25,777 nucleotides of DNA from a virus: the UHGV virus genome UHGV-1341054. One strand, written 5' to 3'. Position 1 is the stretch's first letter. Every line of letters starts with the position of its first letter. A model generated the notes under the pieces. The model saw nothing but the letters and a program-made list of their open reading frames with translations, did no database searches and had not been told where the DNA came from. Both the position numbers and the translations under genes were made by a program. Positions 1-23,452 of this stretch are shown here, piece after piece.

Positions 1-915
1 GGCAGCAGGACCGTTTGAGCAGGCGTTCTTGGAATGTAGATTTTCGTTTTTCTCCAGCAATACCTTACGCCGTGCAGCCCGATCGCATTCGTCACGACCA
101 AGCAAATAGCCATTAATCTCTCTAGGGAACTGACCAAGCACCTTAACCATGTACTCAATGGAATCGCGCCCACCATATTCCAGGAGTTTCTGCCTGATAA
201 ATTGTGGCGTAACAAACGGAGATTCTTCTGAGTTAAGAACAATTGCGGTCCAGATCCCTTTCGGATTACCCGGAGTCTTTGCAAGAGAATGGTGCGAGTC
301 GTAGAAATAACCACTTGGTCTGGTTGGCTGGGAAAGCATAAGCATCCGGTTATCTTCTTCTGTCAAAGCCCCGGTCATTACCCCGATCGCTTTATCAGAT
401 ATACCTGATGCTTCATCCAGAATTAGAAGCAAATGTGCCGCGTGCTCCCCCGCCAGCGCTTCTTCGTTACCGAGTCGATAACCTTTGCAGAGAACTTCCC
501 AGATCCCTTTGCGGGAACGCTCATAAAACATGGTGTCAGATAAGACAAAGTAAGTCTGTAGCCACCCATGACGCTTTACTGCGTTCGCCCAATACTGTTT
601 AACGTATTTGAATACGCCTGTTTTTACCTGGCCTATTTTGTTTGCGACGATGATGACACGGGCATCCGGGAAGAGAATCAGATAAATCAGCAACAACATT
701 GCCGTTAACGATGATTTCCCCGTACCGTGACCAGAAGTAACGGTGGTCCTACTCCCCTTTTGCTGTACAGACTGGATGATCTCCTGCTGCTGGTGGGATG
801 GAAACATGCCGAAAATATCAACAACAGCCTGGGTAAAGTTGTAGCGATATTTAATAACCATGTCGCGCCAGCGTGGATCACTGGTGACGCACTTAATCTT
901 ACGACTGCGCGCCAT
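1..915 (-). CDS. pacB: Terminase large subunit, N-terminal 305 codons (PacB-like); 3' end lies beyond the window start
   Basis: Minus-strand frame is open from ATG at 915..913 to position 1 (absent from the ORF track because it runs off the edge). Translation [29 protein letters not shown]... contains a Walker A P-loop ([11 protein letters not shown]) as expected for a terminase ATPase. Start overlaps the stop of the upstream gene (TAATG). Confidence 0.75.
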
Positions 916-2279
916 TAATCGGCCTCTGGCGATTCTATGGCGATTTCATCATATCCGCCGTCATACTCTGTATCTGACGCGTCGTAATCGCCGTAAATTT
1001 CAGCCGTTGCGGAGGGGTCTATATCCAATTCATCATCGTTGGACTCGAATTCACCTGCCTTACGCTCACCATTTTGGTCATAATCACCACACCCCAGGTC
1101 TTCAACTATTGTTGCCACATCGGCACGGCGATCTGCCAACCACTGCGGATGGTTAGCCTGGAGTGAGGCGAACTCCCGCGCTTCTTTGTCCAGTTGTTCA
1201 TCATCAACATCATTGCTGTCAGAAATTGGCGGTTCCAGAAGCGTGATGGCTTTCGCCGCACGCGCAGCCAGGATTGCAGGAACACTTACCCCTTGCCGCT
1301 CGATGTATTCCGCAACACCTATATCGTCCAGTTCCTCGCGCTCGCGCATACGTATAGCGGTTGCGATAACCCTGGCGGCGCGTGCATCAGCGCCAAGACG
1401 ATAGTCAATCTCTTTGCTACGTTGCTCTGCCTGTAGGCGTGCAATGTCCAGTTTTTCTCTGGCCTCAGCCTCTTTAAATGCCTGCTGCCGCGCCCCCTGA
1501 ATCAGTTTTTCCTGGCCTTGCTGGAGTTTTTGCTCTGTCTGATAAATGGCTGCGAGGCGGCTGATGAAGTCGTTCATGTAATAGGCGGCATCCTGCATGA
1601 GGCCGCAGAGACGCTGGGCCGGGTGCATCCCTTCCGGCTCGCCATCGCCTAAAATATCAATTTCTTTACGTAGCCGTGCCGCCTCCATGTCTACAATTGA
1701 CTGGTATTCTATGGCGCGTTCCTGAGCCATCAGTATGGCCTTACGCAGATGTTCAGCTGCACCGTTCTGCATCATTTCACGGGCGACATTTTTCGACGGC
1801 AAGGTGGCACATTGTGCTGATTCGCCAGGGATCATTTGCAATGATCCCTGACTTGAAGATGCCTTTTTATCCTTTTCTGGGATCATTTTTGCTTTTTTAT
1901 CGGCAAATGATCCCTTTGATAAATCCACTAACTCACTGTTATCAAAGGGCTTATCAGCATGATCCTCGTTACGCTTGCGCGGCATCTCCCTGAATTGACT
2001 TGTCGCTGGCCTATTGTCAGTTTTTGTAAATTCTGATTCTTTTCCGCTCGCTCGTTGTTGTCTTTTTGTCCCACCAGCACGGGGTTGCTGGCGTGTTCTG
2101 GCGCGGTTCTTTGATGGTTTAACTTTGGCCTGCACCTCATTTTTTTTCATATTGAGATGCTTTCTGGCAGTGTTGAAACTAAGGCCATTTTGTTCACAGT
2201 ATTCCTTTACCGTGATCCCTTTTTCCTCTTTCAACGCCAGAAACCGGGCACGATGCTCTTCCCAATTAACCAGTGTCAT
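915..2279 (-). CDS. pacA: Terminase small subunit (PacA-like), 454 aa
   Basis: ORF immediately upstream of and coupled to the large subunit. N-terminus [42 protein letters not shown] looks like a terminase small-subunit HTH. The gene contains a GATC-rich repeat cluster (1828-1914), as the P1 pac site lies inside pacA. Start overlaps the upstream gene stop (ATGA). Confidence 0.65.
1828..1914. other. Candidate pac (packaging initiation) site: four copies of a GATC-containing 9-mer as two inverted pairs
   Basis: GGGATCATT at 1828-1836 and 1879-1887; reverse complement AATGATCCC at 1840-1848 and 1906-1914. Each carries a Dam GATC site. Analogous to the clustered TGATCA/G hexamers of the P1 pac site, but not the same sequence. 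Confidence 0.45.
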
Positions 2280-2668
2280 ACAGCAACACCACGGCGTTTA
2301 ATGGCTTCATTCCACAATCGGTTAGCCATGTTCACCAGTTCACGGCGTTCCGTCTGATTCTTGCCAAAGATAAATCGGTTGGAATTCTTTACAAGCAGGC
2401 GGTCAAACTGCGGTGTACGTCCGCGTACCTTAAACTGATACCCGTCAAGGCCATGAAGCCAGTATTTGCGCGGGTATACGCGGTCATCGCGCTCACAAAT
2501 AGCCCTGCTCGAACGAACAAAGTGACGGATGATATTGTTAACATTGACACGTGACACGTGAAGATGAGGATATTTATCTTTGGCGAGGGTGGTTATCTCA
2601 GTGACTGTAAGATAACAGTCTTTCCTGATCATGATATCCGCTATTTCGGCACTGCTGATTTTATCCAT
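2276..2668 (-). CDS. Hypothetical protein, 130 aa; by position could be a late-gene regulator, unverified
   Basis: ATG at 2668..2666; stop overlaps the pacA start (ATGA). In P1 the gene upstream of pacA is lpa, but the match here is positional only. Confidence 0.55.
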   Translation of the reverse strand: MDKISSAEIADIMIRKDCYLTVTEITTLAKDKYPHLHVSRVNVNNIIRHFVRSSRAICERDDRVYPRKYWLHGLDGYQFKVRGRTPQFDRLLVKNSNRFIFGKNQTERRELVNMANRLWNEAIKRRGVAV

Positions 2669-2779: not shown

Positions 2780-3174
2780 TACCATCTGCTTAAACGAACA
2801 ATATGTCTTACTTTTGCGGACCACTTCCCTTTGGTTTTGTTGACTACCGCCTGCGCCAGCCTTAACTCGCTTTCATAATCAGCCTTGCGCCCATCGTTTT
2901 CCGACAGCAAATAGCCTTCAACTTGTGGTACGGTCAGATAGTCCTGATCAACATTAAGTGGTCCTGTGGGTGCTCTGAACGGCGTTAGTTGCTTTGCGTT
3001 CCAGTTAAATCGAATACGTACGTCACGAACGGCAAGGGTTGCATACCCATGCACGGTACTTTCGTAACCTAGTTTTGTTTCACCTGCATGACATGACGTG
3101 ATTTTGCAGTCAAGCAACGTCCAGTCCATTTCCTTAGCTTGTTCAACTGTTAGCTTCTGCTCTTCGTACATCAA
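2779..3174 (-). CDS. Hypothetical protein, about 130 aa
   Basis: ORF-track TTG start at 3174; a more likely ATG at 3171..3169 overlaps the stop of the upstream gene (translational coupling). Confidence 0.55.
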   Translation of the reverse strand: MMYEEQKLTVEQAKEMDWTLLDCKITSCHAGETKLGYESTVHGYATLAVRDVRIRFNWNAKQLTPFRAPTGPLNVDQDYLTVPQVEGYLLSENDGRKADYESELRLAQAVVNKTKGKWSAKVRHIVRLSRW

Positions 3175-3746
3175 AATGCCTCCCAGTCAGTTGCCATAAT
3201 GTCTACGCTGCTGGCAAACCAGTCAGAACGTGCTTGCAAAGCACCATCCATCATTACCAGACGTGGAAGAATGGAGACTTTGACGCCCTTTTGCACGTTG
3301 AATATTCCTTCCGGAAGAAAGCTAACCATCTTGTCCTTACTTTCAATGCAGCCGGGTTCGAGTGATATGTACTGTCCTTTAGGCCAGGATTTTCGGCGTG
3401 CGTCTAATCCGTTCATTAACCAGTGGATTGCGACAGAAAAAGGAATGTTTGCTTTGGCAATGGAAAGTCCACCAGCGACAGCCTGTTTATGAAACTTGAG
3501 GAGTTTTACAGCGGCCTCGGCAAGCGCAACATAAGGTTCGGGATGGACTTCGGTAAGGCTGCATCCACGAACTGTTACTGTCACAGCATGGGAATCGCCT
3601 TTTGACGCCGTTTCGATGTTGACCCCTTTGTTTGACAGTGCGTGATACAAAGCGTCACCCATGCATGACCAGCGTTCATTGCGTCCAATGAACTCACTCA
3701 AGATGCGGTCCTGCTCTGTATACGTTGCATTAGCCAAAACAGTCAT
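3171..3746 (-). CDS. Hypothetical protein, 191 aa
   Basis: ATG at 3746 preceded by a strong SD (AGGAGAGG, 4 nt spacer); contiguous with and coupled to the downstream gene. Confidence 0.65.
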   Translation of the reverse strand: MTVLANATYTEQDRILSEFIGRNERWSCMGDALYHALSNKGVNIETASKGDSHAVTVTVRGCSLTEVHPEPYVALAEAAVKLLKFHKQAVAGGLSIAKANIPFSVAIHWLMNGLDARRKSWPKGQYISLEPGCIESKDKMVSFLPEGIFNVQKGVKVSILPRLVMMDGALQARSDWFASSVDIMATDWEAF

Positions 3747-3984
3747 AACCTCTCCTTTCCTACAGACGTAACTATTCCCCGGATACCCGGTAGTGTGTGT
3801 CTTGTTTCGTATTAGTATGAGATACAGCCTTAGCGACTATATGATGGGTTGAGATAGGGTTGTGGCGGTGGTGCCTCCACCTGCCAGGACAGCCACCCCT
3901 GGCGACGACACTTACCAGAACGATTTTGTTTATACAAAAAAGTTGAAGAAAATGGCTTCGTCACGTGCGCATAGCCGCAATTAC

Positions 3985-4275: not shown

Positions 4276-4351
4276 TGGTGGCCCCTACCGGACTTGAACC
4301 GATGACCGTGCGATTATGAGTCGCCAGCTCTAACCACTGAGCTAAGGGGCC
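4276..4351 (-). tRNA. tRNA with anticodon CAU, most like tRNA-Ile2 (lysidine type); Met not excluded
   Basis: Minus-strand 76 nt GGCCCCTTAGCTCAGTGGTTAGAGCTGGCGACTCATAATCGCACGGTCATCGGTTCAAGTCCGGTAGGGGCCACCA. 7-bp acceptor stem, D and T arms, anticodon loop CTCATAA, encoded CCA. Closely resembles E. coli ileX as recalled from memory. Confidence 0.85.
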
Positions 4352-5312: not shown

Positions 5313-5388
5313 TGGGGCCGATTAACGGACTCGAACCGCTGACATCCTGCTTACAAGGCAGGCGCTCTACCAACTGAGCTAAATCGGC
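5313..5388 (-). tRNA. tRNA-Thr (anticodon UGU)
   Basis: Minus-strand 76 nt GCCGATTTAGCTCAGTTGGTAGAGCGCCTGCCTTGTAAGCAGGATGTCAGCGGTTCGAGTCCGTTAATCGGCCCCA. Canonical cloverleaf, anticodon loop CTTGTAA, encoded CCA. Confidence 0.9.
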
Positions 5389-5390
5389 AC

Positions 5391-5465
5391 TGGCGATGGT
5401 GAGTGGATTCGAACCACCGACCAGTTGGTTAACAGCCAACTGCTCTACCGCTGAGCTACACCATC
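5391..5465 (-). tRNA. tRNA-Asn (anticodon GUU)
   Basis: Minus-strand 75 nt GATGGTGTAGCTCAGCGGTAGAGCAGTTGGCTGTTAACCAACTGGTCGGTGGTTCGAATCCACTCACCATCGCCA. Canonical cloverleaf, anticodon loop CTGTTAA, encoded CCA. Lies 2 nt upstream of tRNA-Thr. Confidence 0.9.
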
Positions 5466-6742: not shown

Positions 6743-8063
6743 TCATCTCCCGTACAAATCTTCAACACCGCCGTTCTTTTTATCCCACTCATTCGCCCAT
6801 ACCCGACAGGAATCAATGATTTCCTGTCGGCAGTCGCCCTGCATGAATGGCAACTCGTCATGAAAGTTGCTTGGGATGCAGGCCACACTGAAAACAGTAT
6901 CAAATCCGGCGTCCTTGATGCCTTCCATCGTCTCAGGGCGCATTTTTAACTCGTCAACCGGGGCATCTTTGGCATCCATAATGCGTCGATGCAAGCGAGG
7001 ATAATCCTCTTCAAGGTACGCCATAATCTTATTGTGAAGGCATTCGTCGATGTCGTTGTTCCAGTCTTTGGCAAACTCAGGCATTCGGTAATAAAGTGGC
7101 GTTCCCCAAACTGACGGGATCACATCCATTGTCAGCAAACGGTTTGTTCTAATTTGCAGGTGATAGTTAGCAGTAAGTAATGATTCTCCCCGCTGTCCGG
7201 TTTCCATCTCAAGAAAGTCGTTTTTTTCCGCATGAATAAAATCTGNNNNNNNNNNGGCCATGTGGGTATTCGTGAATATAAGCAACCGCATCCCTGCCAT
7301 CGTACATGAGCGGGAAAGATTCCGGGCGTTCTGGCATACCGCAGGCGCGATTCAGATCATACCCAAGCTGAGAACATTCACTCTTTAACTTCTCGATGAT
7401 AGCCTGAGCAGAAGCAAGTTTCTTACGCAGGCTTACGTTCTCGCCCTGGTATTTAATGCTCACTTTGTTCAGTTCGGATACACGCTCTTTAAGTTCGCGG
7501 CGTTCTCTTTTAAGGGAACGGTTATCTCTCTCGCTGTCATCCAGGCGTTTTGCCAGGCTGGACGGGAAGTCTTTCTTATAGCGCCGTAAATCTGACTCTG
7601 CCGCTGCGCGTAGCGTGTTGGCCTGCTGGAGACTGGCTTCAAGTGTACCGATCTCTCTTTTATGCTGTTCTGCATACTCAGTAATGATTTCACCCAGCGT
7701 CTCCGCCGTGGCGCTCATACCGGTAGCATGGGAAAAACTGATCAGGCTGGCGTTAACGACACGCTGAAATTCTTCGAACTGATCAACCAGGGCGTTGTAG
7801 TCTGATGCACCCGCATCCAGTAGCTGATTGATGTCATTTACAAGGTTATCTGCTGTGGCAAGAGTGCTTTCAAAAAGGCGTTTTGACAGGTCATCTCCGG
7901 CAGTCCGCTTTTGTAACAACTGTATCTGGCTGCGGAGTGTATCGATATCCGCAGAAATGATGTCTTCNNNNNNNNNNATCAAGGACAAGGCAGAGTCAAT
8001 GGGTTGGAAAGAAGGTCAGAAATGATGTCTTCGGTGGAGGAGGTTACTGCTTGCTGACTCATG
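6743..8063 (-). CDS. Hypothetical protein, about 440 aa, N-terminal coiled-coil region; reading frame broken by two 10-N gaps
   Basis: ORF-track pieces 7209..7988 and 6743..7300 are protein-like only on opposite sides of the N run at 7246-7255, consistent with one gene and an arbitrary gap length. The likely true start is ATG at 8063 (SD AAGGA): MSQQAVTSSTEDIIS, whose EDIIS is encoded by a 16-mer duplicated either side of the N run at 7968-7977. Confidence 0.5.
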
Positions 8064-9326: not shown

Positions 9327-9593
9327 TCAATAGTTTATCTTATCCTGTTCGGTAATACTGCTAATTGTCTTATCAATGGCTACTTTCCACCCATCAAAGT
9401 TTAAATTATCAATACGCTCGACCAATTTATCCTCAGTATGAGGATAATAAATCCAACTCCATTCATTAGGACTATCAATCTTTATCAGTGTAAAAACACG
9501 CTTATAACGATGAAAGTCAAGTTCGTATCCCTTTGACAATGCGTAATCTTTTAGATCATCAATCGTGAAAAGCCGATTCTTTCGCATAATCAC
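9327..9593 (-). CDS. Hypothetical protein, 88 aa, in a visibly AT-rich segment (moron-like)
   Basis: ORF coupled to the upstream gene (ATGA overlap at 9590-9593); base composition looks more AT-rich than neighbours by eye. Confidence 0.5.
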   Translation of the reverse strand: MIMRKNRLFTIDDLKDYALSKGYELDFHRYKRVFTLIKIDSPNEWSWIYYPHTEDKLVERIDNLNFDGWKVAIDKTISSITEQDKINY

Positions 9594-10024
9594 CCCGCCA
9601 TGCTGTATTTTTCTATAGATTCGTCATAACTGGTGTACAGATACGGTTCTGTATCATCAGCATAGCTTGCGACTTCAAGTTGGTGGACCTGATTGTAAAC
9701 CGCATCGTTTTCCAGACGTTCTGCCGAATACAAATGCGCCGCGAGAAGAGTCAATGCCGGGCGACTCATGCTATAGATAGTTGCCACATCGCCATCCACA
9801 ATCTGACCAAAGTCAGTAATTCCGCGCTCCAGCAATTGCGTTTTGATAGCAGGCCACCACGGACCATACAGCCGGTACAATAACGGTTCTTTTTTCAACC
9901 TTTCGACCATTACGCCAAGATAGGCATCCAGGTATTCACCTTCTCCCCTGCCAACAAGTGCCTGTGGCAAAATTTCTTCAAGGTAAGATTCCGTTGGTTT
10001 TACTGTGTCGATCAATGTTGTCAT
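9590..10024 (-). CDS. Hypothetical protein, 144 aa, acidic C-terminus; immediately downstream of the DarB-like gene
   Basis: ATG at 10024, 36 nt after the giant gene stop; C-terminal third is rich in D/E/Y (EVASYADDTEPYLYTSYDESIEKY). Confidence 0.6.
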   Translation of the reverse strand: MTTLIDTVKPTESYLEEILPQALVGRGEGEYLDAYLGVMVERLKKEPLLYRLYGPWWPAIKTQLLERGITDFGQIVDGDVATIYSMSRPALTLLAAHLYSAERLENDAVYNQVHQLEVASYADDTEPYLYTSYDESIEKYSMAG

Positions 10025-10060
10025 TTTAATTCGGCCTCTTTCGAGGCCGCTCCATATCTG

Positions 10061-13000
10061 TTAAGCCGCCGCTTCAATGATTTTACGCACTTCATCAATT
10101 GAATAGCGCGTCGATACCATCCAGGCCGGACGGTCAAAGTCCACATCGGCAACCGGGTTAACTTCGAAGTTCCAGAAACGCCCACCGATTTTCTTGATGG
10201 CATCTTTTGCGTTGCGAATAGATGAAGATCCGGGCATATCTGCAATGAGATAAACAGCACCAGCGTCTTCACTTACGCTCCACCAGCGACCGCGTACACG
10301 TGCTTTGGCGCGAATAGGCTTATCGTTTACCACGATAATGTAATCATCATTCGCTACCTCGTCAGCCTTGATCTCAGCTACATCAGCCTGTTCTTCCCGT
10401 TCAGTCTTAGCCGCCGCAAGACGTTCAGCAATCTCTGACTCCGTAGCGCCACCATTTTTAAGCGACACAAAGTCATCCCACGTTGCAGATTTCAGAGCAT
10501 CAGGCAAATCTTCCACATACCCGCCCGCTTTTAAGGCGTTAGCATGGCGTATAGCCATCCCGACAAGACGATTCAAGCTATATGCATCTGCGAAATCATC
10601 ACGGGTAATGCTTTTATCCTCAAATGCATGAATTAACGCCCCCGCTTTAATCCAGACTGTTGCAGATGTTTCAAGCGGATTATCGGCATTAGAAATGCTT
10701 AGTTGCGCACTGTAAACTGACTGATCTGCCAACGAGGCAAGTGACGCCCAACCATCTGCATCACTTTGCATTTTGTACTGATCAAACAGCGCATCACGCC
10801 ATGCATTTAGCGCCATGCGTGTTTTCTCAATTTTGGTTGTGATTTTGGACGTTCGCAGTTGTTCGAACATCTGCGAAATCTCCGAACCATTGGTGAAGGC
10901 TTTCATGCGCCCCTGGAAATCGCGGAAAGAAAGCACGCCTCGCCAGTACGTTTCCAGGCCTTCTCCATTTGGCTTGCGGAACAAGCTGCGGACATCTTCC
11001 TGAGTCACTTTTTCAAGTGAACGCCCGGAGAGATCGCGCCCTGCCATCCAGCCATCGAACGCCTTGACCACATCATCCATAGTGGCCTGAGCGCCCCATG
11101 CCTCCATACCTTGCTCATAATCGAAGCCAAACAATGCACGGAGAAAACCTTCTGCCTCTGAAATACGAAGTGGGTTATCACCTGTCTGGATTTTCGCGAC
11201 TTCGCGTTTTAATGCTTCGTCGTTTACATCAGGATAAATCCATTGTTCAGGTGCTATCTCGTCACTTCCAGATGCGCTAATTTTTTGACCAATCATCCCG
11301 CCATAGGTAAAGGCCATTTGAATCTGACCATTGGCGTTACGATAAGCCCAATAGTTTACATCCGGTGCTCCTTGCCAACCGCCACGATCTTTCCCGGTTA
11401 CCCGCATAACACCGCTACGAATAGCGTCATAGAATTGATCGCGAGAAAGAGAGGTTGAAAGCTGGTGGCTTTGAACACCACGTGCCGCTATTTCTCGTGA
11501 TTCAGCCACCCCCTCTTCAAATGTTACCGCTTCAACCACTGAGTCAAACGGTAATGTCATGGTTGAGCCAGGAGAACGAGAGTAGCGACTTGCTCTATCC
11601 AGCCAGGCGACGCGGCAGGTGTATTGCGCTTTTTCGCCCTCAATTTGTGTCACGCGCACAACCGCCGTTGTCTCGTGTTCAGCATCAATGACTGCACGGT
11701 AGTAACTACCTTTATGCAACAGGATGTTCTTGCCAGTGCGCATATACTCCTGCGGGTTCTGAATAACATCGATACTGATATCCAGCACACCAGACTTAAT
11801 AGCACGCTCCACATCACCACGAGAGCGTTTCATAACAGTATCCGCGTCCTTCGCCCTGGTGATTGCAAATCGCAATTCACGCACTCTTTTTTTAGCTTTG
11901 CTTAGTGCTGAAAGCGTATATTTCTGTCCGTTTTTGTTGGTGCCGCTCTTAATCAGTCCATCCAGATCACTCTGGTATCGTTGCGCCTGCTCCATCGCGC
12001 TTTTCAGTTCTGCCTCCATCATGCCGATATCCTTCCCGGCAGCATTCGCCGCTTTCAGGTAGTTATCGAGAGCATTATTGGCTTCGCGTTGCGCTTTAAG
12101 TCGCAGGCGTTCCTCACGTTCTTTCGACTGACGAGCCATAATTGCGCGTCGTTCTTCCGGATTTGCCGCCAGCATAATGGCGCGCTCATCAGCGTCATCC
12201 GCATCACCATTGGCGATCTCTGACATATCGGAGGTCATCACCATCTTGATCCAGTCTTTCTTACGTTTAAGCGTATCCAGACGGAAGTCATCGAATGTGC
12301 CTTTGCCACAATAATAGTGAACATTAACCTTCTCTTGCGGAGAACCTACGCGCGCACCGCGCCCATTTCGTTGGTCGATACTGGCTGGAGTCCAGGGTAG
12401 TGTCAGGTGGTGAATATCGGTCGTTCCAATATGCAGGTTGATACCTACTTCGGCTTTCTTGTTACAGATAATGATCCGCGTGCGCCCTTCGTTATAGTCG
12501 GCAGCAATACCTTCCATCCCCTCAAGGCCAGCATCATTTTTAGCAGAGAGATAATCCTCATATTGGGCCAGTTTACTGTAGTAGGTTTCCCATGCGCCTT
12601 CTTTGTATTCACCGTCTTTGTTTGGCGTCGGTTCGGTCGGTTTTTTGACCTTTTTCAGCTTAACACCACCAGCCTGGCTAACAGTCGTAGCATTGATAAT
12701 GCCTATCTCCTGCTCTGACATTTGCAACGCACTGGCAATGATGCGACGTAGTTTCTGGTGCTGGGCTTTCTCGTCGATAAAGATAATTTGCTTACCGTTC
12801 TTAAGCCCTTCACGCAGGTTCTCGATAAGTGCGGCATACTTAGGCGGGATCGGGTGTGACACCTGTTTCATGTCGATGCCTGCATCAGCAATTGCCTTGA
12901 GTATTTCAGCCTCCAGGTCAATGCTGGCACGCAATTCGACATGATTTGGATGCTCACTAAATGTTGTAGCTACAACCTTGCTGGTACGGGTACTGACCAG

Positions 13001-16000
13001 GCCTCCGGTCGCATCCTCCTCTGCTTCTTCTGCATCGTCTGCCGCTTTCCCACCAGCTACTTTTGGTAGGTTATTAGCTATAGACTTCACCTGTTCAGTA
13101 AGCTCTACAGGGAACTGGAATGTGATAGCGCTGGCGTAAAGATCCGGGTCGATAGCGACCTTATCCATGTCGCGAATGATAGAGAAAATGAAATCATCCG
13201 GTTTCCCGCGAGTGATATTGCCTTCATCATCGACAGTGACGTCATCACCACGACTTAACTCCTGCGCGCGTTTACGAAGCTCTTCATAAGCTGCTTGCTG
13301 CTCTGGAGTCATTGGGATCTGCAAGGTGTTTTCGACGATATCCGGGATTTTTACCGTTGCACCAACATCGGAAGCCGTTTTAAGCGTTGTCCAGCGGTGG
13401 AAAATGCCACGCAGACCATCAAGGTTCTGGAAGCCCACCAGCCCCTGTTTCTCTTCCACTTCGCCAGAAATTTTCTGGACCTGAACAGTGGCTGTTTTAC
13501 CGAACACTCGCACAAAGTCGTCAGGGGTAATAATCCCCATGTGCATCCACTCGTGCTGAGGGATCACCGTTGACAGCATGTTGAAGGCGTCAATAGGGCT
13601 ATTAACCAGCGGAGTTGCTGTCAGCATTACGACGCCGCGCCCATTGTGACGTTTCATCATGTACGCAGCTTTTACAGCCATGTCACGGGCCATTTTGGAT
13701 ACCGCCGGATTAGGTAAATATGCCAGTTGCCCCGCTTCACGCCCGGCACCAAAGGAGTTGCGGTAGTTGTGCCCTTCGTCGGCAATTACGCTATCGAAGT
13801 TCATATCCTCAAAGTACGGGATATTCTGCTTCTTCGCTGTACCGGTATTCGCGGCCTGGTCCTTAATCTTGTTCTTCTTCTGCGCATCACGGTGCTTGCC
13901 TGACGCCAGGTCAAGACGCCCCATTTCGGCGGCATTAAAGACAGCCTGCTGTGAGTTTTCTCCGATGGTTTCATCGCGCAACGGGATAGATGCGAACTGC
14001 TCTTTTGTCATGATGACCGTTCGCCAGTTCGACGATGGGATCATGTTCATGCGTTGAGCGATAACGGCACTGGCGGATTCTTTAACAACATTACGGGTGA
14101 TCGGATTGCCGTCGTTATCAAGTCGCGGGGTGCCGTCCTGGTCGAGCACTGGGGCAGTCTGAATATTTCCGTCACCATCGCGCACTTCGTCCAGACCGAT
14201 AAACATCATATTGGCGAAGGCATCTGCACTGTAGAAGCTCTGTGCCTCGTGATACCAGTTCTGGTATACGGCCTTTGGAACAACGATACAGGTACGTTTG
14301 GTTCGCCCGGTTTCAAAGTTATAGGCTTCCAGTGCCAGCGCGGTCGTCGTTTTACCCAAACCAGTTCCGAATCCCATAATCCCGCGCCCATCTTCCGACA
14401 GACGACGAACTTCTTCGTTCTGGTAAGAAAGCGGTATACGTTTCCCGCTGATGCCTTCAAGCCCCAGGGGTGCGTCTGAATGGGTAAATGGAATATAACC
14501 GTTAAAGGCGTCGTTATAATCGCGGGCGATCTGATCTGCCTGCGGGTGAGTTCTTAACCAGTCGTTAAAACTCGTCTCAAGCTGGGCGATTTTGTCCAGG
14601 TACTCGTTAGCGTTCTGTCCGCGCGGTTTAACACCGTTCAGGTAGTTCTCAAGCTGATTCAGGAAGCCATCTTTGTTATTCGCTTTCTTGAACTCGTTCC
14701 CGTTTTTGCCGTTTACGGTTCGTAGCTGGTAGCCAGTAAATACCCCGTCCTTACCTTCGTAATCGTCCGGGGATACCAGAATGCCGTTCTCAACCTTAAG
14801 GTCGGGTTCTGTATACTTAAACTCGTCATAGCCCTGCTCTGCCAGGAACTCTTTTATCAGGCGGCGATCCAACCACCGTGCGTTAAGGTTTACCGTGACT
14901 TTGTTCAGCGGTGTAAACGTGCGTTTCTCTTCGATTTTTGAAAGCTGGCGCTCAAAGTTGGCCTTCCGCTCTCCTGTGGACGCGTCTCGCCAGCCCACCA
15001 GCAGTGCCACTTTTGATTTAATATCACCGCTAGTGGCACGGCCCATCGGTAGCAGGCAACCATATCCATCAATAGCGATATCGTCGAATTTCGCCAGGTA
15101 TTCCAGTGCTTCATCGTCGTCTTCGGGCAGTTCGCCTTTAAACGCCTCGCGGAAGTCATCAAGATTGATAGGATTAAGGGCAACATCGCTGAAAAGGTGT
15201 GTCACAACCTGTTCCGGACGAGTGAAATCAATACCAGCAGCCCCTTTGCTAACATCAAGCCGTCCGGACAGCAGATCGGATGCTTCACCGTCCTGATTGA
15301 CGTTCCCGGTGAATGTCAGCCAGTTCTTCGCGCCCGCTTCGGTAATATCGTTTAGCTTAATAGCGTGTGGTGGGCCATATTTAGCAACTTCGGCAGCCGT
15401 CAGACGTGCGGCATCAGCCAGTTCATCATCGACGTTTTCACCAAGGTTACGCTTATCCAGCGCTTTATTGATAAGTTGTCCGATCAGCGCACCGCGCATA
15501 ATGCGCTCACGGTCTTTTTCGCGTTGTTTCCCAGCAAAGCGAATCATTGCCGCTACTTCATCACTGATAACCGATGGATAGTCGGAAGCGATCGCGGATA
15601 TCTGCCCCCATGACAGAGCCAGAATGCCGTTTGTTGATTGGAACGTTGTTTGCAGATCACCGAATGTCGAAACACCATATCGGCTTACATCAAGTACGGA
15701 GGATTTGGTTGTCGCATCTTTAACCCATTTCAGGCCATCAAACTCGTGCCAGATGCCACCTACAAGGCGCTTATCTCCTACTTTGGCACCCTGCCATGCC
15801 TGAGTAGTTACGCCAAGCAAATCCCAATTAATGCGGCTTTCAAAGCGGCGCGATAGAGCGGTTTTCATCGACTCATTGGATACACGACCGTCCTTTTTCA
15901 CCACCAGGGTGTTGCGGAAGCTGGTGCGTTCCATGTCGCCGTAAACGAATCGCTTCCCTTCGGTTGTAAACCACTTGCCTTTCAGAAAGGTATCCCAAAG

Positions 16001-16903
16001 GACATTTGCCGATTTTAGCGTCGCATCATCCGTATCGGGGATCATCTCCAGGAAGGCTTCCGGGTGTTTACGCAATACCCATACGTCCACAACTGTATCT
16101 GTACCGGATTCGCTGAACGTACCGGAAGGCATACGATGTGCGCCCAGAAATTCCGCTTTACGACTAACCTTGTCACGCAGTTTCTTGTATTTAGTGCCGT
16201 CGGTCATGCCGTTAGGCACCACCAGCACGATCAGTCCGCCAGGTTTAACCTTGTCAATGGTACGAAGCACAAAGTAGTTACCTACGTTCTTTTCGTTCGC
16301 ATAGGCAGGATCTAATCCAGCCACACCGGAACGACCTTCCCCGAACGGCACATTACCCACCGCGTGGTCATACATTGCGTCTTTGGCTGCAAGCGACTCA
16401 AACGCTCCGATATTCACATCATCTTCCGGGTGCAATAACTGGTTAATTCGACCAGAAATCGGAGACAATTCGGCGCTCGTCATTATCATTCCCTGCCGCT
16501 TCGTCTCCTGGAAAATTCCCGTACCCGCTGACGGTTCAAGAACATGACCGCTATCAATGCCGTAATCCGAAAATAAATCCCAGATACCTTCTGCCATAAA
16601 TTGCGGCGTGTAATACTCGTACTGACTTCCTTCGCCATCCGTCAGACCACCTTCCCCGGTGTATCCTGCAAGGATCTGACGCTGTTCGTCTGTCAACTGA
16701 GAGCCATCGAAACCGGGAGGCAAAGCGTTAAGAAGATTGACTGCCGCGTTATTAGCTGCCCGGCGAGTCTTCTGAATGCTGACGCCATCTACCTTCTTAA
16801 CGCCGAAGGCGGCGATTGCACGTGGTTTATGTAACCGACTGATAAGGTCAATCAGTCCACCAATGCTGGTGGCTGCATTGATTGAATTGAGTAATTTGTC
16901 CAA
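10061..16903 (-). CDS. darB: Giant 2280-aa protein: N-terminal N6-adenine methyltransferase domain plus SF2 helicase, DarB-like antirestriction protein
   Basis: Single uninterrupted 6.8-kb ORF. MTase motif I VLEPSAGTGIF and motif IV GNVPFG near the N-terminus; helicase Walker A GFGTGLGKTT, motif II VIADEGHNY, motif III LTATPLVN, motif VI QRNGRGARVG. Size and architecture match P1 DarB (2255 aa) as recalled. Plus-strand ORFs inside are antisense shadows. Confidence 0.8.
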   Translation of the reverse strand: MDKLLNSINAATSIGGLIDLISRLHKPRAIAAFGVKKVDGVSIQKTRRAANNAAVNLLNALPPGFDGSQLTDEQRQILAGYTGEGGLTDGEGSQYEYYTPQFMAEGIWDLFSDYGIDSGHVLEPSAGTGIFQETKRQGMIMTSAELSPISGRINQLLHPEDDVNIGAFESLAAKDAMYDHAVGNVPFGEGRSGVAGLDPAYANEKNVGNYFVLRTIDKVKPGGLIVLVVPNGMTDGTKYKKLRDKVSRKAEFLGAHRMPSGTFSESGTDTVVDVWVLRKHPEAFLEMIPDTDDATLKSANVLWDTFLKGKWFTTEGKRFVYGDMERTSFRNTLVVKKDGRVSNESMKTALSRRFESRINWDLLGVTTQAWQGAKVGDKRLVGGIWHEFDGLKWVKDATTKSSVLDVSRYGVSTFGDLQTTFQSTNGILALSWGQISAIASDYPSVISDEVAAMIRFAGKQREKDRERIMRGALIGQLINKALDKRNLGENVDDELADAARLTAAEVAKYGPPHAIKLNDITEAGAKNWLTFTGNVNQDGEASDLLSGRLDVSKGAAGIDFTRPEQVVTHLFSDVALNPINLDDFREAFKGELPEDDDEALEYLAKFDDIAIDGYGCLLPMGRATSGDIKSKVALLVGWRDASTGERKANFERQLSKIEEKRTFTPLNKVTVNLNARWLDRRLIKEFLAEQGYDEFKYTEPDLKVENGILVSPDDYEGKDGVFTGYQLRTVNGKNGNEFKKANNKDGFLNQLENYLNGVKPRGQNANEYLDKIAQLETSFNDWLRTHPQADQIARDYNDAFNGYIPFTHSDAPLGLEGISGKRIPLSYQNEEVRRLSEDGRGIMGFGTGLGKTTTALALEAYNFETGRTKRTCIVVPKAVYQNWYHEAQSFYSADAFANMMFIGLDEVRDGDGNIQTAPVLDQDGTPRLDNDGNPITRNVVKESASAVIAQRMNMIPSSNWRTVIMTKEQFASIPLRDETIGENSQQAVFNAAEMGRLDLASGKHRDAQKKNKIKDQAANTGTAKKQNIPYFEDMNFDSVIADEGHNYRNSFGAGREAGQLAYLPNPAVSKMARDMAVKAAYMMKRHNGRGVVMLTATPLVNSPIDAFNMLSTVIPQHEWMHMGIITPDDFVRVFGKTATVQVQKISGEVEEKQGLVGFQNLDGLRGIFHRWTTLKTASDVGATVKIPDIVENTLQIPMTPEQQAAYEELRKRAQELSRGDDVTVDDEGNITRGKPDDFIFSIIRDMDKVAIDPDLYASAITFQFPVELTEQVKSIANNLPKVAGGKAADDAEEAEEDATGGLVSTRTSKVVATTFSEHPNHVELRASIDLEAEILKAIADAGIDMKQVSHPIPPKYAALIENLREGLKNGKQIIFIDEKAQHQKLRRIIASALQMSEQEIGIINATTVSQAGGVKLKKVKKPTEPTPNKDGEYKEGAWETYYSKLAQYEDYLSAKNDAGLEGMEGIAADYNEGRTRIIICNKKAEVGINLHIGTTDIHHLTLPWTPASIDQRNGRGARVGSPQEKVNVHYYCGKGTFDDFRLDTLKRKKDWIKMVMTSDMSEIANGDADDADERAIMLAANPEERRAIMARQSKEREERLRLKAQREANNALDNYLKAANAAGKDIGMMEAELKSAMEQAQRYQSDLDGLIKSGTNKNGQKYTLSALSKAKKRVRELRFAITRAKDADTVMKRSRGDVERAIKSGVLDISIDVIQNPQEYMRTGKNILLHKGSYYRAVIDAEHETTAVVRVTQIEGEKAQYTCRVAWLDRASRYSRSPGSTMTLPFDSVVEAVTFEEGVAESREIAARGVQSHQLSTSLSRDQFYDAIRSGVMRVTGKDRGGWQGAPDVNYWAYRNANGQIQMAFTYGGMIGQKISASGSDEIAPEQWIYPDVNDEALKREVAKIQTGDNPLRISEAEGFLRALFGFDYEQGMEAWGAQATMDDVVKAFDGWMAGRDLSGRSLEKVTQEDVRSLFRKPNGEGLETYWRGVLSFRDFQGRMKAFTNGSEISQMFEQLRTSKITTKIEKTRMALNAWRDALFDQYKMQSDADGWASLASLADQSVYSAQLSISNADNPLETSATVWIKAGALIHAFEDKSITRDDFADAYSLNRLVGMAIRHANALKAGGYVEDLPDALKSATWDDFVSLKNGGATESEIAERLAAAKTEREEQADVAEIKADEVANDDYIIVVNDKPIRAKARVRGRWWSVSEDAGAVYLIADMPGSSSIRNAKDAIKKIGGRFWNFEVNPVADVDFDRPAWMVSTRYSIDEVRKIIEAAA

Positions 16904-16977
16904 AGGAGATCCCCTTCAAAGCCGTGAACTCCGCACATTGCGGTACGGCTTGAAAGGGTATGGAGTGTGTTAATTTG

Positions 16978-17057
16978 GGATAACAAAGTTGGCACCCAAA
17001 ACCGCCATTCATTAATGGAGTAGGTTTTAGCGTGCCCGGATAACAAATATGGCTGCC
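16978..17057. promoter_or_regulatory. Divergent control region: two direct repeats GGATAACAAAnnTGGC 60 bp apart flanking a short palindrome
   Basis: GGATAACAAAGTTGGCACCC (16978-16997) and GGATAACAAATATGGCTGCC (17038-17057); between them AAAACC ... CCATTCATTAATGG ... GGTTTT. Lies between the divergent starts at 16903 (minus) and 17114 (plus). Confidence 0.3.
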
Positions 17058-17113
17058 ATGAAAATCACACACTCCCCATAGTTTATGTTCGTTTGTTAAC
17101 CAGAGGAGTAGTT

Positions 17114-17599
17114 ATGGTGAGTACCGATCCTCGTTGGCTGATGGAAGCCCGTAAACATATTGGCCTGACAGAAATCAAAGGGGCTAAACACAATCCTGAA
17201 ATCGTCCAGTTCTGGCGAGACATCAAGCGCGGCGGCATTAAAGATGATGAAACGCCGTGGTGCGCGGCCTTTGTTGGCGCAATGTTAGAGCGTGTTGGTA
17301 TCCGTTCCAGCCGCTTCGAGTCAGCAAAATCCTACCTGACATGGGGTGAGGCGCTCGATACGCCAGCGTATGGATGTATTGCTGTATTTACTCGCGTGGG
17401 CGGCGGGCATGTCGGCTTTGTCGTTGGTCGCCGGGCGAATGGTGATTTGCTCATTCTTGGGGGCAACCAGGGCGATGCCGTGAATATCCGCGCTTTCCCA
17501 ACATCGCGCGTTTCAGGTTATCGCTGGCCTACTGGAGAACCACGGAATACTGCCTTACTTCCTAATGGTGAGGCCGCCACATCCACCAGCGAAGCGTGA
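17114..17599 (+). CDS. TIGR02594-type (NlpC/P60- or CHAP-like) putative peptidoglycan hydrolase, 161 aa
   Basis: Preferred start ATG 17114 with SD GAGGAG (ORF track gives TTG at 17093). Motifs DDETPWCAAFVGAML, GGGHVGFVVG and LGGNQGDAV fit the conserved Cys/His hydrolase pattern of this family. Only clear plus-strand gene in the window. Confidence 0.7.
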   Translation: MVSTDPRWLMEARKHIGLTEIKGAKHNPEIVQFWRDIKRGGIKDDETPWCAAFVGAMLERVGIRSSRFESAKSYLTWGEALDTPAYGCIAVFTRVGGGHVGFVVGRRANGDLLILGGNQGDAVNIRAFPTSRVSGYRWPTGEPRNTALLPNGEAATSTSEA

Positions 17600-17606
17600 C
17601 TCCACA

Positions 17607-17634
17607 CCCCGGTACAGGCCGGGGTTTCTGTATT
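17607..17634 (+). terminator. Rho-independent terminator for the plus-strand hydrolase gene
   Basis: CCCCGG-TACAGG-CCGGGG followed by TTTCTGTATT, 8 nt after the stop; sits between convergent genes. Confidence 0.5.
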
Positions 17635-17656
17635 AAGCTGTCATAATTTACCCACA

Positions 17657-18619
17657 TCATCCTCGGAATCCAGCAGGGATACGCCACTCACGATCATCAA
17701 ACTCAGTTTTGGTGCCTCGTTGTTTCATGAGCTTTAACGCCTCGTCAACGGTCTGGCAGCCCTGATAGGCCGAATAATCCATTGAAAAATCCAGCCCGTT
17801 GGCAGTCTTATTGGCCTTTCCCGCATTCCCTGTCCCGCGAATCCAGGCAATTTTATGAGCTAACTTTTCAGCAGCCCGATGTAGTGACAGACGTTTCGCG
17901 TGGCGGTCGTCAGCCTGACGTTTAGCGGATCGCGCTTTTGCAGCAGCTATGCGGCTGTTTATCTGCTCTTCGCTAACAACATGCGCTTCACTCAGAAAGT
18001 CTGGATTTAACTGAGTGGACACCGCCTGGGAAGCCTTTGGCTGAACCTGGCATGATCTTTCTCTTTTTTTGGTTACGGTTTTATTCTTCTTTTCTATTGG
18101 TTGTTCATCATGAACACGGGGGGAGTTGTTCATTTTGAACAGGGGGGCATTGACCTCAAAAAAAGAACGTACCTTTGAAATCAGTTGCTTAACCAGTTTC
18201 GTGGCATTAACAATTTTGACGCCCTGCTTACGTCCAGTCTCCAAAACGATGGAAATAAACTGGAGGAAATCAGGGGTGAAGCGGTAGACATTACAAACCT
18301 GAGCATTGTTACTGCCAATCTGATGTTGCTTGGTGAGCATTCCACATTTAACAGCCTCAGAAAATGCACGGCGAACGGTGGAGACGCTACGGCCCAGAAT
18401 GGCAGCCATATCAGCATAAGAGCGACGGATTATGTATTCGTCAGTTGACCCTGCCAGGTTGGAAAATTCGGCAATGATCGAACCGTGTGTTGGCGACAGG
18501 AATCCACTGTGCCGGGCAAAGAAACTTAGCTGGTGGCCTTTGATATGCTTATGGTACTCAGCGTTGCCTTTCCGCTCAAAAATGTTGAAAGTGATGGCAT
18601 CTGAATTTAAAATATCCAT
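17657..18619 (-). CDS. HTH-containing protein, possible replication initiator (Rep-like), about 320 aa
   Basis: Preferred start ATG 18619 with SD AAGGA (ORF track start 18652 lacks an RBS). Segment YADMAAILGRSVSTVRRAFSEAVKCGML is a typical winged-HTH; C-terminal region is basic and K/R-rich. Function is inferred. Confidence 0.55.
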   Translation of the reverse strand: MDILNSDAITFNIFERKGNAEYHKHIKGHQLSFFARHSGFLSPTHGSIIAEFSNLAGSTDEYIIRRSYADMAAILGRSVSTVRRAFSEAVKCGMLTKQHQIGSNNAQVCNVYRFTPDFLQFISIVLETGRKQGVKIVNATKLVKQLISKVRSFFEVNAPLFKMNNSPRVHDEQPIEKKNKTVTKKRERSCQVQPKASQAVSTQLNPDFLSEAHVVSEEQINSRIAAAKARSAKRQADDRHAKRLSLHRAAEKLAHKIAWIRGTGNAGKANKTANGLDFSMDYSAYQGCQTVDEALKLMKQRGTKTEFDDREWRIPAGFRG

Positions 18620-18725
18620 CTGTAATCCTTGATATATCAATGCGAGTTCCAAGTTTTGGTATATCAGCGTGGGTGTCTAAGACCTACGCCTCTGATAAAT
18701 CTACTCAAATAGATTTATCGCCCTC

Positions 18726-18749
18726 AAAAGCCGCCCCCCAGCGGCTTTT
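18726..18749. terminator. Bidirectional rho-independent terminator
   Basis: AAAAGCCGC-CCCCCA-GCGGCTTTT, with A/T runs on both sides; downstream of the 18866..19861 gene. Confidence 0.55.
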
Positions 18750-18815
18750 GTTCTTTCTACGCCCATCAAACTGAGCAACGAACGCGATCCTACCCGAAAC
18801 ATTAATCACTAATCA

Positions 18816-18848
18816 ACAGTGTATATTAATACACTGTGTTAGAAATTT
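18816..18848. promoter_or_regulatory. Perfect 22-bp palindrome abutting a copy of the recurring motif (GTGTTAGAAATTT), candidate operator or origin-proximal site
   Basis: ACAGTGTAT-ATTA-ATACACTGT (9-bp arms, 18816-18837), immediately followed by GTGTTAGAAATTT (18836-18848), upstream of the Rep-like gene. Confidence 0.4.
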
Positions 18849-18865
18849 AATTTAATCAAAAAGAC

Positions 18866-19861
18866 CTAACGTCGCGAAACAAAGATCAACGGGCTTACAT
18901 TCTTGTTGTTTTGAGATAGTGCTTGCTGCTTCTCTCCTTTCGTAACAGGCAGGCCATACGTTGCATTTACCCCCAGAGACTCAAGCATCGCTGCCACAAT
19001 TCGGGCGTCATCTTCTGACTGCATCCGACATAATGCACGGCGTTGCTCTGCACTGATGAATACAGGCATTTCCTGGATAGCGTCACGCAGGATACGACGG
19101 CATTTCTTCGCATCTTCACCCTGGCTTTCCATCATTGCTGTCTGAGCGCGTAGCTTGTCGCGAAGCTGCATGTTTTCCACTTCAAGGAGCATCAATTCTG
19201 ATTCCAGGGCTTCACGCTGTACTGATTCGAGCATGGCTTGCTGACTCTTCATTGCTGAGAAGTGATGCACAAGATCGGTGGCAGCATTATCTGTAAAGCC
19301 CTGAGCAATAAGCGCCGCGTGAATTGCAGCCTCTCTCTCCTCTGCTGACTCAAGCATCAGGCTTTTCTTGTCAAGGCTGATATAGTTAGGCACCGTCACA
19401 TAATCGAAACCATGAAACGACTTCACCATGGAGACTGAGGAATCCGGTCCAGATGTCGCCCATGACCACCCACCAGCACCTGAATTAATCATCCCCTGCA
19501 CTATACGCCCGGTATCGGTATCCAGAATTTCCTGTGTATGCGTAACAACACCATTGTCATCAACTGAAATATCAATCGTCCTGTTAGATGGTACGTTTTC
19601 AAGAACTACAGGCTTTCCATCCACCATGACGACTGAAACTTCTGGCAAATTAAGACTTTTGGTTTTGTCGTAATGCATTGCGCGGCGACCGTGGCCGTAA
19701 TAGCCATACATTTCACCGAGCGCAATCCTCTCTTTCGTCTCAGGATAATTCAATGTCTCCCGCACCGACTGAATAACGTAATTTCGGTTGTTTTGCGGCG
19801 TATGCTTACGAATTTTCTCGACCAAAGAGAAGCGATCCGTAACGGTGTTCAGTGATTGCAT
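18866..19861 (-). CDS. Hypothetical protein, 331 aa, coiled-coil C-terminal half; possible head morphogenesis protein
   Basis: ATG at 19861 with strong SD GGAGGG; tightly linked to the upstream 560-aa gene (13-nt spacer); followed by a terminator. Confidence 0.65.
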   Translation of the reverse strand: MQSLNTVTDRFSLVEKIRKHTPQNNRNYVIQSVRETLNYPETKERIALGEMYGYYGHGRRAMHYDKTKSLNLPEVSVVMVDGKPVVLENVPSNRTIDISVDDNGVVTHTQEILDTDTGRIVQGMINSGAGGWSWATSGPDSSVSMVKSFHGFDYVTVPNYISLDKKSLMLESAEEREAAIHAALIAQGFTDNAATDLVHHFSAMKSQQAMLESVQREALESELMLLEVENMQLRDKLRAQTAMMESQGEDAKKCRRILRDAIQEMPVFISAEQRRALCRMQSEDDARIVAAMLESLGVNATYGLPVTKGEKQQALSQNNKNVSPLIFVSRR

Positions 19862-19874
19862 TCATTCCCTCCGG

Positions 19875-21557: not shown

Positions 21558-21628
21558 GAGTCACCGCGAAATGGTTTCCAGTTTCGCGGCAGCATAATCA
21601 GTGTGTTATTTCAGGGGGGTGAGAATCT

Positions 21629-22990: not shown

Positions 22991-23059
22991 AATACACTCC
23001 CCTTACATAGAAAGCAGGAAGTGTAAAAAGTGTGTGATTTATGGACTTACACGAAAGTG

Positions 23060-23081
23060 AAAGGGGCATTTCAGCCCCTTT
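23060..23081 (-). terminator. Candidate terminator or stable hairpin after the 122-aa gene
   Basis: AAAGGGGC-ATTTCA-GCCCCTTT, 3 nt downstream of the stop at 23084, with a short T-rich tail. Confidence 0.4.
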
Positions 23082-23083
23082 GA

Positions 23084-23452
23084 TTACCCTGCATAACCGT
23101 TGGCTTTCACCCAGCTTATGGTCTGCTCTTTAGCCTGTTCCAACGTAAGGAACTCGCCTACATAGTTTGAGATCCCACGTAGCGCATCAATAAATTCCAT
23201 TTGCGTGGACTTTGTGAATGCACCTCCAAGGAAGTCTGTCACTATCTTAGGAATGTCACCTGCAACAGTATCTGGCTGCGCCTGCGGATCCGATACTGAT
23301 TGGGCCGCAGCCCCAAGCCCCAGTTTAAGCATCACATCAACAATCTGCTTACCAATTGAGACGCGTTGCAATACTGGCGCGGTTTTCTGCGCCTGCATTA
23401 GATCTGATAGCTCTTTACCTAATTTCAGGCGTTCTAAAACAGAGATAGCCAT
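23084..23452 (-). CDS. Hypothetical protein, 122 aa
   Basis: ORF whose start overlaps the stop of the upstream 645-aa gene at 23452. Confidence 0.55.
   Translation of the reverse strand: MAISVLERLKLGKELSDLMQAQKTAPVLQRVSIGKQIVDVMLKLGLGAAAQSVSDPQAQPDTVAGDIPKIVTDFLGGAFTKSTQMEFIDALRGISNYVGEFLTLEQAKEQTISWVKANGYAG

Follow-up and report, generated by a model that had tools for sequence, protein, structure and literature searches.

A cluster of oriented GATC heptamers inside pacA as the probable packaging site of a D6-like phage-plasmid

The packaging site (pac) of phage P1 is textbook material, and a related site in a P1 relative is to be expected. In P1, pac is a 161-bp site inside pacA that carries seven TGATCA/G hexamers containing Dam sites; it needs PacA, PacB, IHF, and HU, hemimethylated DNA is bound and further methylation promotes cleavage, and synonymous recoding of the hexamers, which leaves the protein unchanged, abolishes packaging (PMC10028697). 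Here we describe a cluster of GATC-containing repeats inside the pacA gene of UHGV virus genome UHGV-1341054, analyzed as one stretch of 25,777 nucleotides (the window). By sequence comparison, five heptamers at 1828–1966 probably make up the recognition part of a D6-like phage-plasmid's pac site—one that occupies the same place as P1 pac, but is built from a different unit and arranged in a different layout.

In the annotated P1 sequence, the TGATCA/G hexamers lie at pacA nucleotides (nt) 195–229 (four) and 325–348 (three), with an extra TGATCG at nt 376; the IHF site and the mapped cleavage positions fall between the two arrays, at nt ~256–285, with the cut at ~275–285. Other headful phages of the P22, SPP1, and Sf6 type have the recognition site of their small terminase embedded in the terS coding sequence. 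The candidate site resembles these in lying within the small-terminase gene; however, the P22/SPP1/Sf6-type sites are not Dam-site repeats and are not known to be methylation-gated. For phage D6, the GenBank records (MF356679, AY753669) carry no pac site annotation, and full-text literature searches found no description of a D6-type pac site; an earlier description cannot be excluded.

We assign the window to a D6-like phage-plasmid, and hence to a distant relative of P1, because of its plasmid identity and its D6 synteny. In a plasmid collection search it is 99.1–99.3% identical to ~80-kb Shigella dysenteriae plasmids and ~77% identical to many ~90-kb plasmids of E. coli, Shigella, and Salmonella, with 38 plasmid records matched by the window region. 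The first 30 kb of the D6 genome are syntenic with the window (pmgS, ulx, darB, repL-like, pro, portal, ddrB, ddrA, and darA), and the window has the gene order of phage D6 and of D6-like plasmid prophages of E. coli, Shigella, and Salmonella. Identification depended on the plasmid collection and on tblastn; no match for this region was obtained by megablast in the phage collection, and a scan of genome contigs with PacA peptides gave zero confirmed relatives.

The repeat-bearing gene had been called PacA-like in an earlier note on this sequence, and this assignment is borne out: the open reading frame (ORF) matches phrog_1711 ("terminase") with E=3e-150 over amino acids (aa) 4–448, and its product has full-length similarity to the PacA of both D6 (73% identity) and P1 (20% identity, E=4e-7). 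The first 104 aa match the small-terminase families phrog_370/51. The protein can be divided into an N-terminal helix-turn-helix (HTH)-like domain, a hypervariable basic linker at ~aa 45–160, in whose coding sequence the repeats lie, and a conserved C-terminal part. The lpa gene is directly upstream of pacA, as in P1 and D6, and the start of pacB overlaps the pacA stop; the shared order is lpa-pacA-pacB-c1-rox/dre, corresponding to lpa-pacA-pacB-c1-lox/cre in P1.

Exact copies of GGGATCATT number only four in the 25.8-kb window, where by our arithmetic ~0.2 copies would be expected by chance on both strands; all four are found where they had been reported, within 1828–1914 and two per inverted pair. 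A fifth core copy, ATGATCC at 1959–1965 (GATC 1961–1964), lies beyond the span first noted and is equally conserved. All five clustered sites (Table 1) are inside pacA, at gene nt 314–452 of 1365, and form one block of ~140 bp with spacers of 45, 18, 30, and 3 bp. The repeats reach 10–13 nt overall: there is a perfect 13-nt inverted repeat (AGGGATCATTTGC at 1827–1839, its complement at 1903–1915), an 11-nt palindrome with a 3-nt center at 1826–1850 (arms CAGGGATCATT and AATGATCCCTG), and two 10-nt direct repeats, 51 and 66 nt apart. At 1939–1954 we also observed a degenerate repeat copy with its flank, TTATCAAAGGGCTTAT as against the TTATCAAAGGGATCAT expected for a perfect complement of 1907–1922; together with site 2 it makes a 16-nt inverted repeat (88%), it is without GATC, and it is absent from the D6 clade.

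The density of GATC is in itself unremarkable. The window has 98 GATC against ~102 expected, and 15% of Markov-1 simulations reached five within 140 bp; plain density was dropped as a test statistic for this lack of significance, and the extended motif was used instead. None of 500 simulations produced five TGATCC, or five ATGATCC, within 140 bp. Scanning the window, the complete D6 genome (91 kb), and 50 kb of the Shigella plasmid for clusters of at least five GATC per 150 bp turned up the pacA cluster alone.

Table 1. Repeat sites, spacers, and genes of the window (gene nt refers to pacA; forward and reverse give the orientation of the unit; sequences are those of the coding strand unless stated).
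Feature	Position	Strand, orientation	Gene nt	Remarks
Site 1, AGGATCA	1960..1966	-, forward	314-320	read Asp-His
Site 2, GGGATCATT	1906..1914	-, forward	366-374	read Gly-Ser-Phe
Site 3, AATGATCCC	1879..1887	+, reverse	393-401	read Met-Ile-Pro
Site 4, GGGATCATT	1840..1848	-, forward	432-440	most variable site
Site 5, AATGATCCC	1828..1836	+, reverse	444-452	read Met-Ile-Pro; borders conserved C-terminal domain
Isolated sixth copy, GTGATCCC (GGGATCAC on coding strand)	2212-2219	-	61-68	HTH-coding part, 253 bp further 5' in gene
A-tract-rich spacer, 30 bp, between sites 3 and 4	1849..1878			length invariant in D6, window, and L024 clades
45-bp spacer, between sites 1 and 2	1915-1959			
pacA, terminase small (recognition) subunit, 454 aa	915..2279	-		phrog_1711; D6/P1 PacA similarity
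pacB, 5' part, terminase large subunit	1..915	-		cut by window start; 93% identity to D6 PacB over 302 aa
lpa, late promoter activator	2276..2668	-		Pfam PF25716 BPP1_LPA, E=6e-48; D6/P1 synteny
Ulx-like	9590-10024	-		part of anti-restriction block
DarB-like, 2280 aa	10061-16903	-		N6-methylase and SNF2 helicase domains
CHAP-domain peptidoglycan hydrolase	17093-17599	opposite to anti-restriction block		
ddrB-ParB domain protein	21629-22990	-		
DarA	23452-25389	-		

The cluster is real, is conserved at the DNA level within a fast-evolving linker, stands at the position of P1 pac, and recurs in all PacA-family genes examined. Among close relatives we compared 26 unique pacA genes, the window's own and 25 others (from IMG/VR, and D6 itself), which form three main clades with 72–75% nucleotide identity. 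GATC at gene nt 63, 316, 368, 396, 434, and 447 is kept in nearly all 26 with no indels between, and the five cluster GATC of D6 have the same gene coordinates (316, 368, 396, 434, and 447); in the D6 genome the block corresponds to about 3715–3850. The motif copies are islands of identity within the hypervariable linker-coding segment: over gene nt 281–480 in four clade representatives, 31 of the 35 columns in the five 7-mers are invariant, as against 67 of 165 others (Fisher P=1e-7), and a random placement of five 7-mers equalled this in 0 of 20000 trials. Third codon positions are invariant in 11 of 12 cases inside the motifs and in 16 of 55 elsewhere.

The individual sites differ in how much of the longer repeat they keep. 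The site 1 GATC (gene nt 316) is present in 26/26 unique D6-clade genes, and the AATGATCCC of site 5 is kept across all clades, while site 4 always has its GATC but reads GAGATCATC in the closest genomes, among them the Shigella plasmid with 99.2% identity, and GGGATCTTC in the D6 clade. All four 9-mers of the window are perfect, as is the 11-nt palindrome that sites 4 and 5 form; D6, in contrast, has a degenerate GAGATCA at site 2 and GGGATCT at site 4. Because site 4 varies in this way in the Shigella plasmid and in D6, the 9-mer is not the conserved unit, which by these alignments is the heptamer GGGATCA/TGATCCC. The cluster of GATC repeats put forward in the earlier note stands, but its unit is 7 nt rather than 9, and its clustered sites are five rather than four.

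Between the window pacA and that of the Shigella plasmid (L047, 20433–21797), five of the 11 nucleotide differences fall inside the 140-nt repeat block—at gene nt 314, 334, 433, 440, and 453, most of them flanking sites 1, 4, and 5, with every GATC left untouched. This clustering has a binomial probability of ~0.003, a post-hoc estimate, and the flanks of the sites may evolve fast even between close relatives.

The same motif extends to distant relatives. PacA homologues from a protein search are at 83–87%, 52–56% (Klebsiella, Raoultella, and Enterobacter), 43%, and 33–36% identity, and every distant relative examined has clusters of GGGATCA or TGATCCC within gene nt ~150–500. In the relatives at 33–56% identity (Klebsiella, Enterobacter, and metagenomes) there are 4–6 GGGATC/GATCCC copies at gene nt 141–520, compared with 1–4 in the rest of each locus (2.5–4 kb), giving Poisson P values of 5e-5 to 5e-8; the conservation in homologous pacA genes on which the earlier note had made its proposal depend is thus present both at five positions in nearly all 26 of the closely related genes and, as heptamer clusters, at this depth. 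Forward copies precede reverse copies in each cluster—a convergent arrangement—and reverse sites occur at the position equivalent to site 5 in all distant relatives. As a negative control, small terminases whose similarity to PacA is confined to the N-terminal HTH (L082–L087) were examined; they have no GATC cluster.

Relatives at 33–56% identity have two heptamer clusters ~100–200 bp apart, like P1, and the upstream cluster is missing from the window, D6, and L024 clades. It is only in these clades without an upstream cluster that the copy at gene nt 61–68 is found, the others encoding Gly-Ile-Thr by GATC-free codons; this isolated copy may be an outlying arm of the site or may be fortuitous. 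In the 43%-identical relative (L037, the P0021 relative) we observed AAACAATGTGTTA at gene nt 342–354, between two heptamer arrays, which is very similar to the annotated P1 IHF site AAACAAAGAGTTA; some members of the D6 superfamily may, on this sequence evidence, keep an IHF site that is missing in the window clade. A cluster of truncated, 326-aa "PacA" proteins (P0011) was considered as a sign of contigs or genes starting at the site and was rejected, the gene being intact and the truncation a matter of which start codon the annotator had chosen.

Set beside P1 pac, the locus shows both likeness and divergence. The site lies in the 5' third of pacA (P1 pac is at pacA nt ~190–380), downstream of lpa and upstream of pacB, c1, and the recombination site, in an lpa-pacA-pacB operon; it consists of several short Dam-site repeats with a common TGATC core, in the part of the gene that codes for the non-conserved linker; and in both cases the element family has its own Dam-family methylase. 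In the family protein alignment, one P1 hexamer, at nt 348 (DVIT), falls on the Ile-Pro that site 3 encodes, within a low-complexity segment where the alignment is fragile. The unit, however, is a variant: the window and D6 type use an asymmetric heptamer, GGGATCA/TGATCCC, in both orientations, whereas the (near-)palindromic TGATCA/G hexamer of P1 is one base shorter. The earlier note had held that the repeat differs from the P1 hexamers, and we agree—a different repeat built on a shared TGATC core is consistent with a related but distinct packaging specificity. The layout differs as well, since the window and D6 clades have a single five-site block and P1 has HEX4 and HEX3 around a ~90-bp spacer; the distant D6-superfamily relatives share with P1 the two-array layout with a gap, which in them is 100–170 bp long.

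Other functions for such a cluster have to be weighed against that of a pac site. Clustered GATC is typical of SeqA/Dam targets, which, together with the Dam-type methylase that the element itself encodes, speaks for a Dam/SeqA-responsive element with another role—regulation of late genes or of pacB, or a replication or segregation signal—and plasmid origins such as P1 oriR bear GATC repeats. We consider this unlikely, however, since a scan of 1600–2100 predicted no sigma-70-like promoter, the replication genes (repL-like and RepB-type) are far from the cluster, and the cluster is tied to pacA in all relatives, including P1, whose mapped pac sits exactly there. The ordinary GATC density also argues against such an element, as the enrichment is only of the oriented heptamer.

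The repeats might instead be a peptide module of the PacA linker (Gly-Ser...Met-Ile-Pro, duplicated), with the DNA repeat a by-product of protein selection or of recent duplication. The inverted pairs do encode KGSF...KMIP and QGSL.QMIP, and I133 and P134, encoded at site 3, are invariant in the family protein alignment, where they are the sole invariant linker columns. Across relatives, however, the heptamer is read in all three frames, the forward copies giving Gly-Asp-His (GDH), Gly-Ser, Gly-Ile (GI), or Trp-Asp-Gln (WDQ), and the reverse copies Met-Ile-Pro, Asn-Asp-Pro (NDP), Lys-Ile-Pro (KIP), or Arg-Ser-Pro (RSP); selection therefore acts on the DNA, and a peptide motif is ruled out as the conserved object. 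Third-position and neighboring-codon bases are likewise kept where the amino acids differ: the G before the site 1 GATC is unchanged while its codon varies between Glu, Ser, and Ala, the A before site 3 is unchanged across Lys and Glu codons and the A before site 5 across Gln and Ala codons, and site 2 keeps GATCATT though the peptide is Gly-Ser-Phe in some genes and Arg-Ser-Leu in others. With the motif Ile always ATC and the motif Ser always TCA or TCT, in a linker that is otherwise hypervariable, we regard the peptide explanation as highly improbable.

To a hairpin or cruciform, such as an mRNA structure tuning pacA translation, mRNA stability, or pacB expression, we give very little credence—the coding-strand RNA of 1820–1925 folds at -35.9 kcal/mol (z=-6.0 vs shuffles), with sites 4 and 5 in a 13-bp hairpin, but pairing partners vary by clade (site 2 pairs with site 5 in D6), the clade-specific changes in site 4 have no compensation in site 5, for which the RNA-hairpin reading was rejected, and copies in distant relatives are up to 60–170 nt apart, some of them neighbors in the same orientation, so that the motif is kept and the pairing is not.

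Several points nevertheless weigh against reading the heptamers as a pac site. The layout is unlike that of P1: in place of two arrays (4 + 3) flanking a ~90-bp spacer there is a single block with spacers of at most 45 bp, plus the isolated copy, and there is no second array ~100–170 bp upstream, though distant relatives have one. A consensus scan for IHF (WATCAANNNNTTR, up to one mismatch) found no site in the first 600 nt of the window pacA; as a control, the same scan recovered the annotated P1 site. Of the features of P1 pac, the type of site envisaged in the earlier note, the equivalent position in pacA and the GATC repeats are found here, while the 4+3 arrays are replaced by a single inverted block and the IHF consensus is missing. 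Single genomes have lost one GATC (L018, L030, and P0004, with site 2 missing in L018 and P0004), for which the sites must be redundant and no individual site is essential. The sites also encode the recurrent GS and MIP, and conservation within the close clades could thus be partly at the protein level. The literature searched yielded no cleavage or virion-end data for D6-type elements. Finally, the phage copy may be defective, given its split pmgS-like gene and the divergence of pacB at the window edge, and the site in this copy may be a relic; such a defect leaves the reading of the site as a family feature unaffected.

If the cluster is a pac site, its mode of action can be proposed. The PacA/PacB terminase would bind concatemeric DNA there and make the first cut of a headful packaging series. 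A PacA oligomer would bind the oriented heptamers through its N-terminal HTH-like domain, the convergent orientation suggesting dimer-like units, and the DNA would be bent or wrapped by the A-tract-rich spacers of fixed length (coding strand) or by host bending proteins. PacB would cut within the block or next to it, the candidate places being the 30-bp and the 45-bp spacer, chosen by analogy with P1, in which the cleavage positions lie between flanking hexamer arrays. Packaging would then run in the direction of pacA transcription, through pacB, c1, and rox, and the terminal redundancy of the first headful would include rox, just as it includes lox in P1; P1 packages from pac towards lox.

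A side observation concerns the ends of two database contigs. Two IMG/VR contigs from the same isolate (2537562191_000026 and _000021) break inside the candidate pac region, at about window 1951–1960: L081 ends at pacA nt 329 and L029/L073 start at nt 320, with a 10-nt overlap, ATGAAAATAA, directly after the GGATC of site 1. The break may have arisen by accident in assembly, or it may hint at physical DNA ends at that place.

As to methylation, we lean towards gating of pac cleavage as in P1: because every unit is GATC-based and a Dam-type methylase is encoded by the element family, full adenine methylation is probably required before the DNA is cut, and cutting would be limited to fully methylated sites. 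The adenine methylase of D6 is dmt-like, its similarity being to the C-terminal half of P1 Dmt; in the Shigella plasmid with 99% identity, a D12-class (Dam family) methylase domain (PF02086, E=1e-56) is encoded by an intact ORF of 301 aa, in a gene that lies beyond the window. The known hosts are Dam-positive enterobacteria.

The remainder of the window holds further observations on the state and gene content of the element. Window nt 1–46 have no match to the pacB of D6 or of the 99%-identical Shigella plasmid, from ~pacB codon 290 on, and a search of the plasmid collection with these 46 nt matched nothing; this stretch may mark a mosaic boundary or a junction left by insertion or rearrangement, and the pacB of this copy may be disrupted. 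A pmgS-like head morphogenesis gene is present as two overlapping ORFs, 6743–7300 and 7209–7988 (both on the - strand), which match the C- and N-terminal parts of phrog_1660, whereas it is a single gene in D6 and in the Shigella plasmid NZ_CP026808; the split can be explained by a frameshift (a defective prophage) or by a sequencing error. In NZ_CP026808, conversely, darB and the portal gene are split, and the window has both intact.

Two genes upstream of lpa, at 3171–3746 (-), is a gene for a 191-aa protein with a Thoeris anti-defence 2 (Tad2-like) domain (PF11195, E=7e-11), which is kept at that position in several relatives (L033, L035, and L036); the RefSeq name of the Shigella copy is "MW1434 family type I TA system toxin". 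Three tRNA genes on the - strand, Met-CAT (4276–4351), Thr-TGT (5313–5388), and Asn-GTT (5391–5465), are on the strand of pacA, whereas in the corresponding region of D6 tRNA Ser(UGA?), Thr, and Asn are annotated on the strand opposite pacA. The region 9590–25389 (-) is a large anti-restriction block like that of P1 and D6.

Nothing known is overturned by these results; the differences from P1 lie in the recognition unit and its use in oriented, convergent copies, in the missing IHF consensus, and in the single compact block found in this clade. Tentatively, and with somewhat less than even confidence, we suggest that the PacA-family pac sites form a series in which terminase and recognition unit have diverged together—the P1 group having TGATCA/G and the D6 superfamily the oriented GGGATCA—and in which the usual two-array site has collapsed to a five-site convergent block in the clade of D6 and the window. 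If this is true, the geometry of terminase assembly and cutting would be a different one, and packaging would be orthogonal to P1 in its specificity, which could be put to use as a second, independent phagemid or transduction system in Enterobacteriaceae; pacA would also be a natural case in which to study how a DNA signal is maintained across all three reading frames of a fast-evolving linker. The site would give the D6-type phage-plasmids, which are widespread in E. coli, Shigella, and Salmonella, a defined packaging signal of the kind needed for predicting transduction behavior and for building P1-orthogonal phagemids. Dam-site-based control of packaging would, as predicted from sequence, be a trait of the PacA family and not a peculiarity of P1, and pacA would offer a clear example of a DNA signal that overlaps a coding region and stays fixed while the protein segment encoded there can vary freely.

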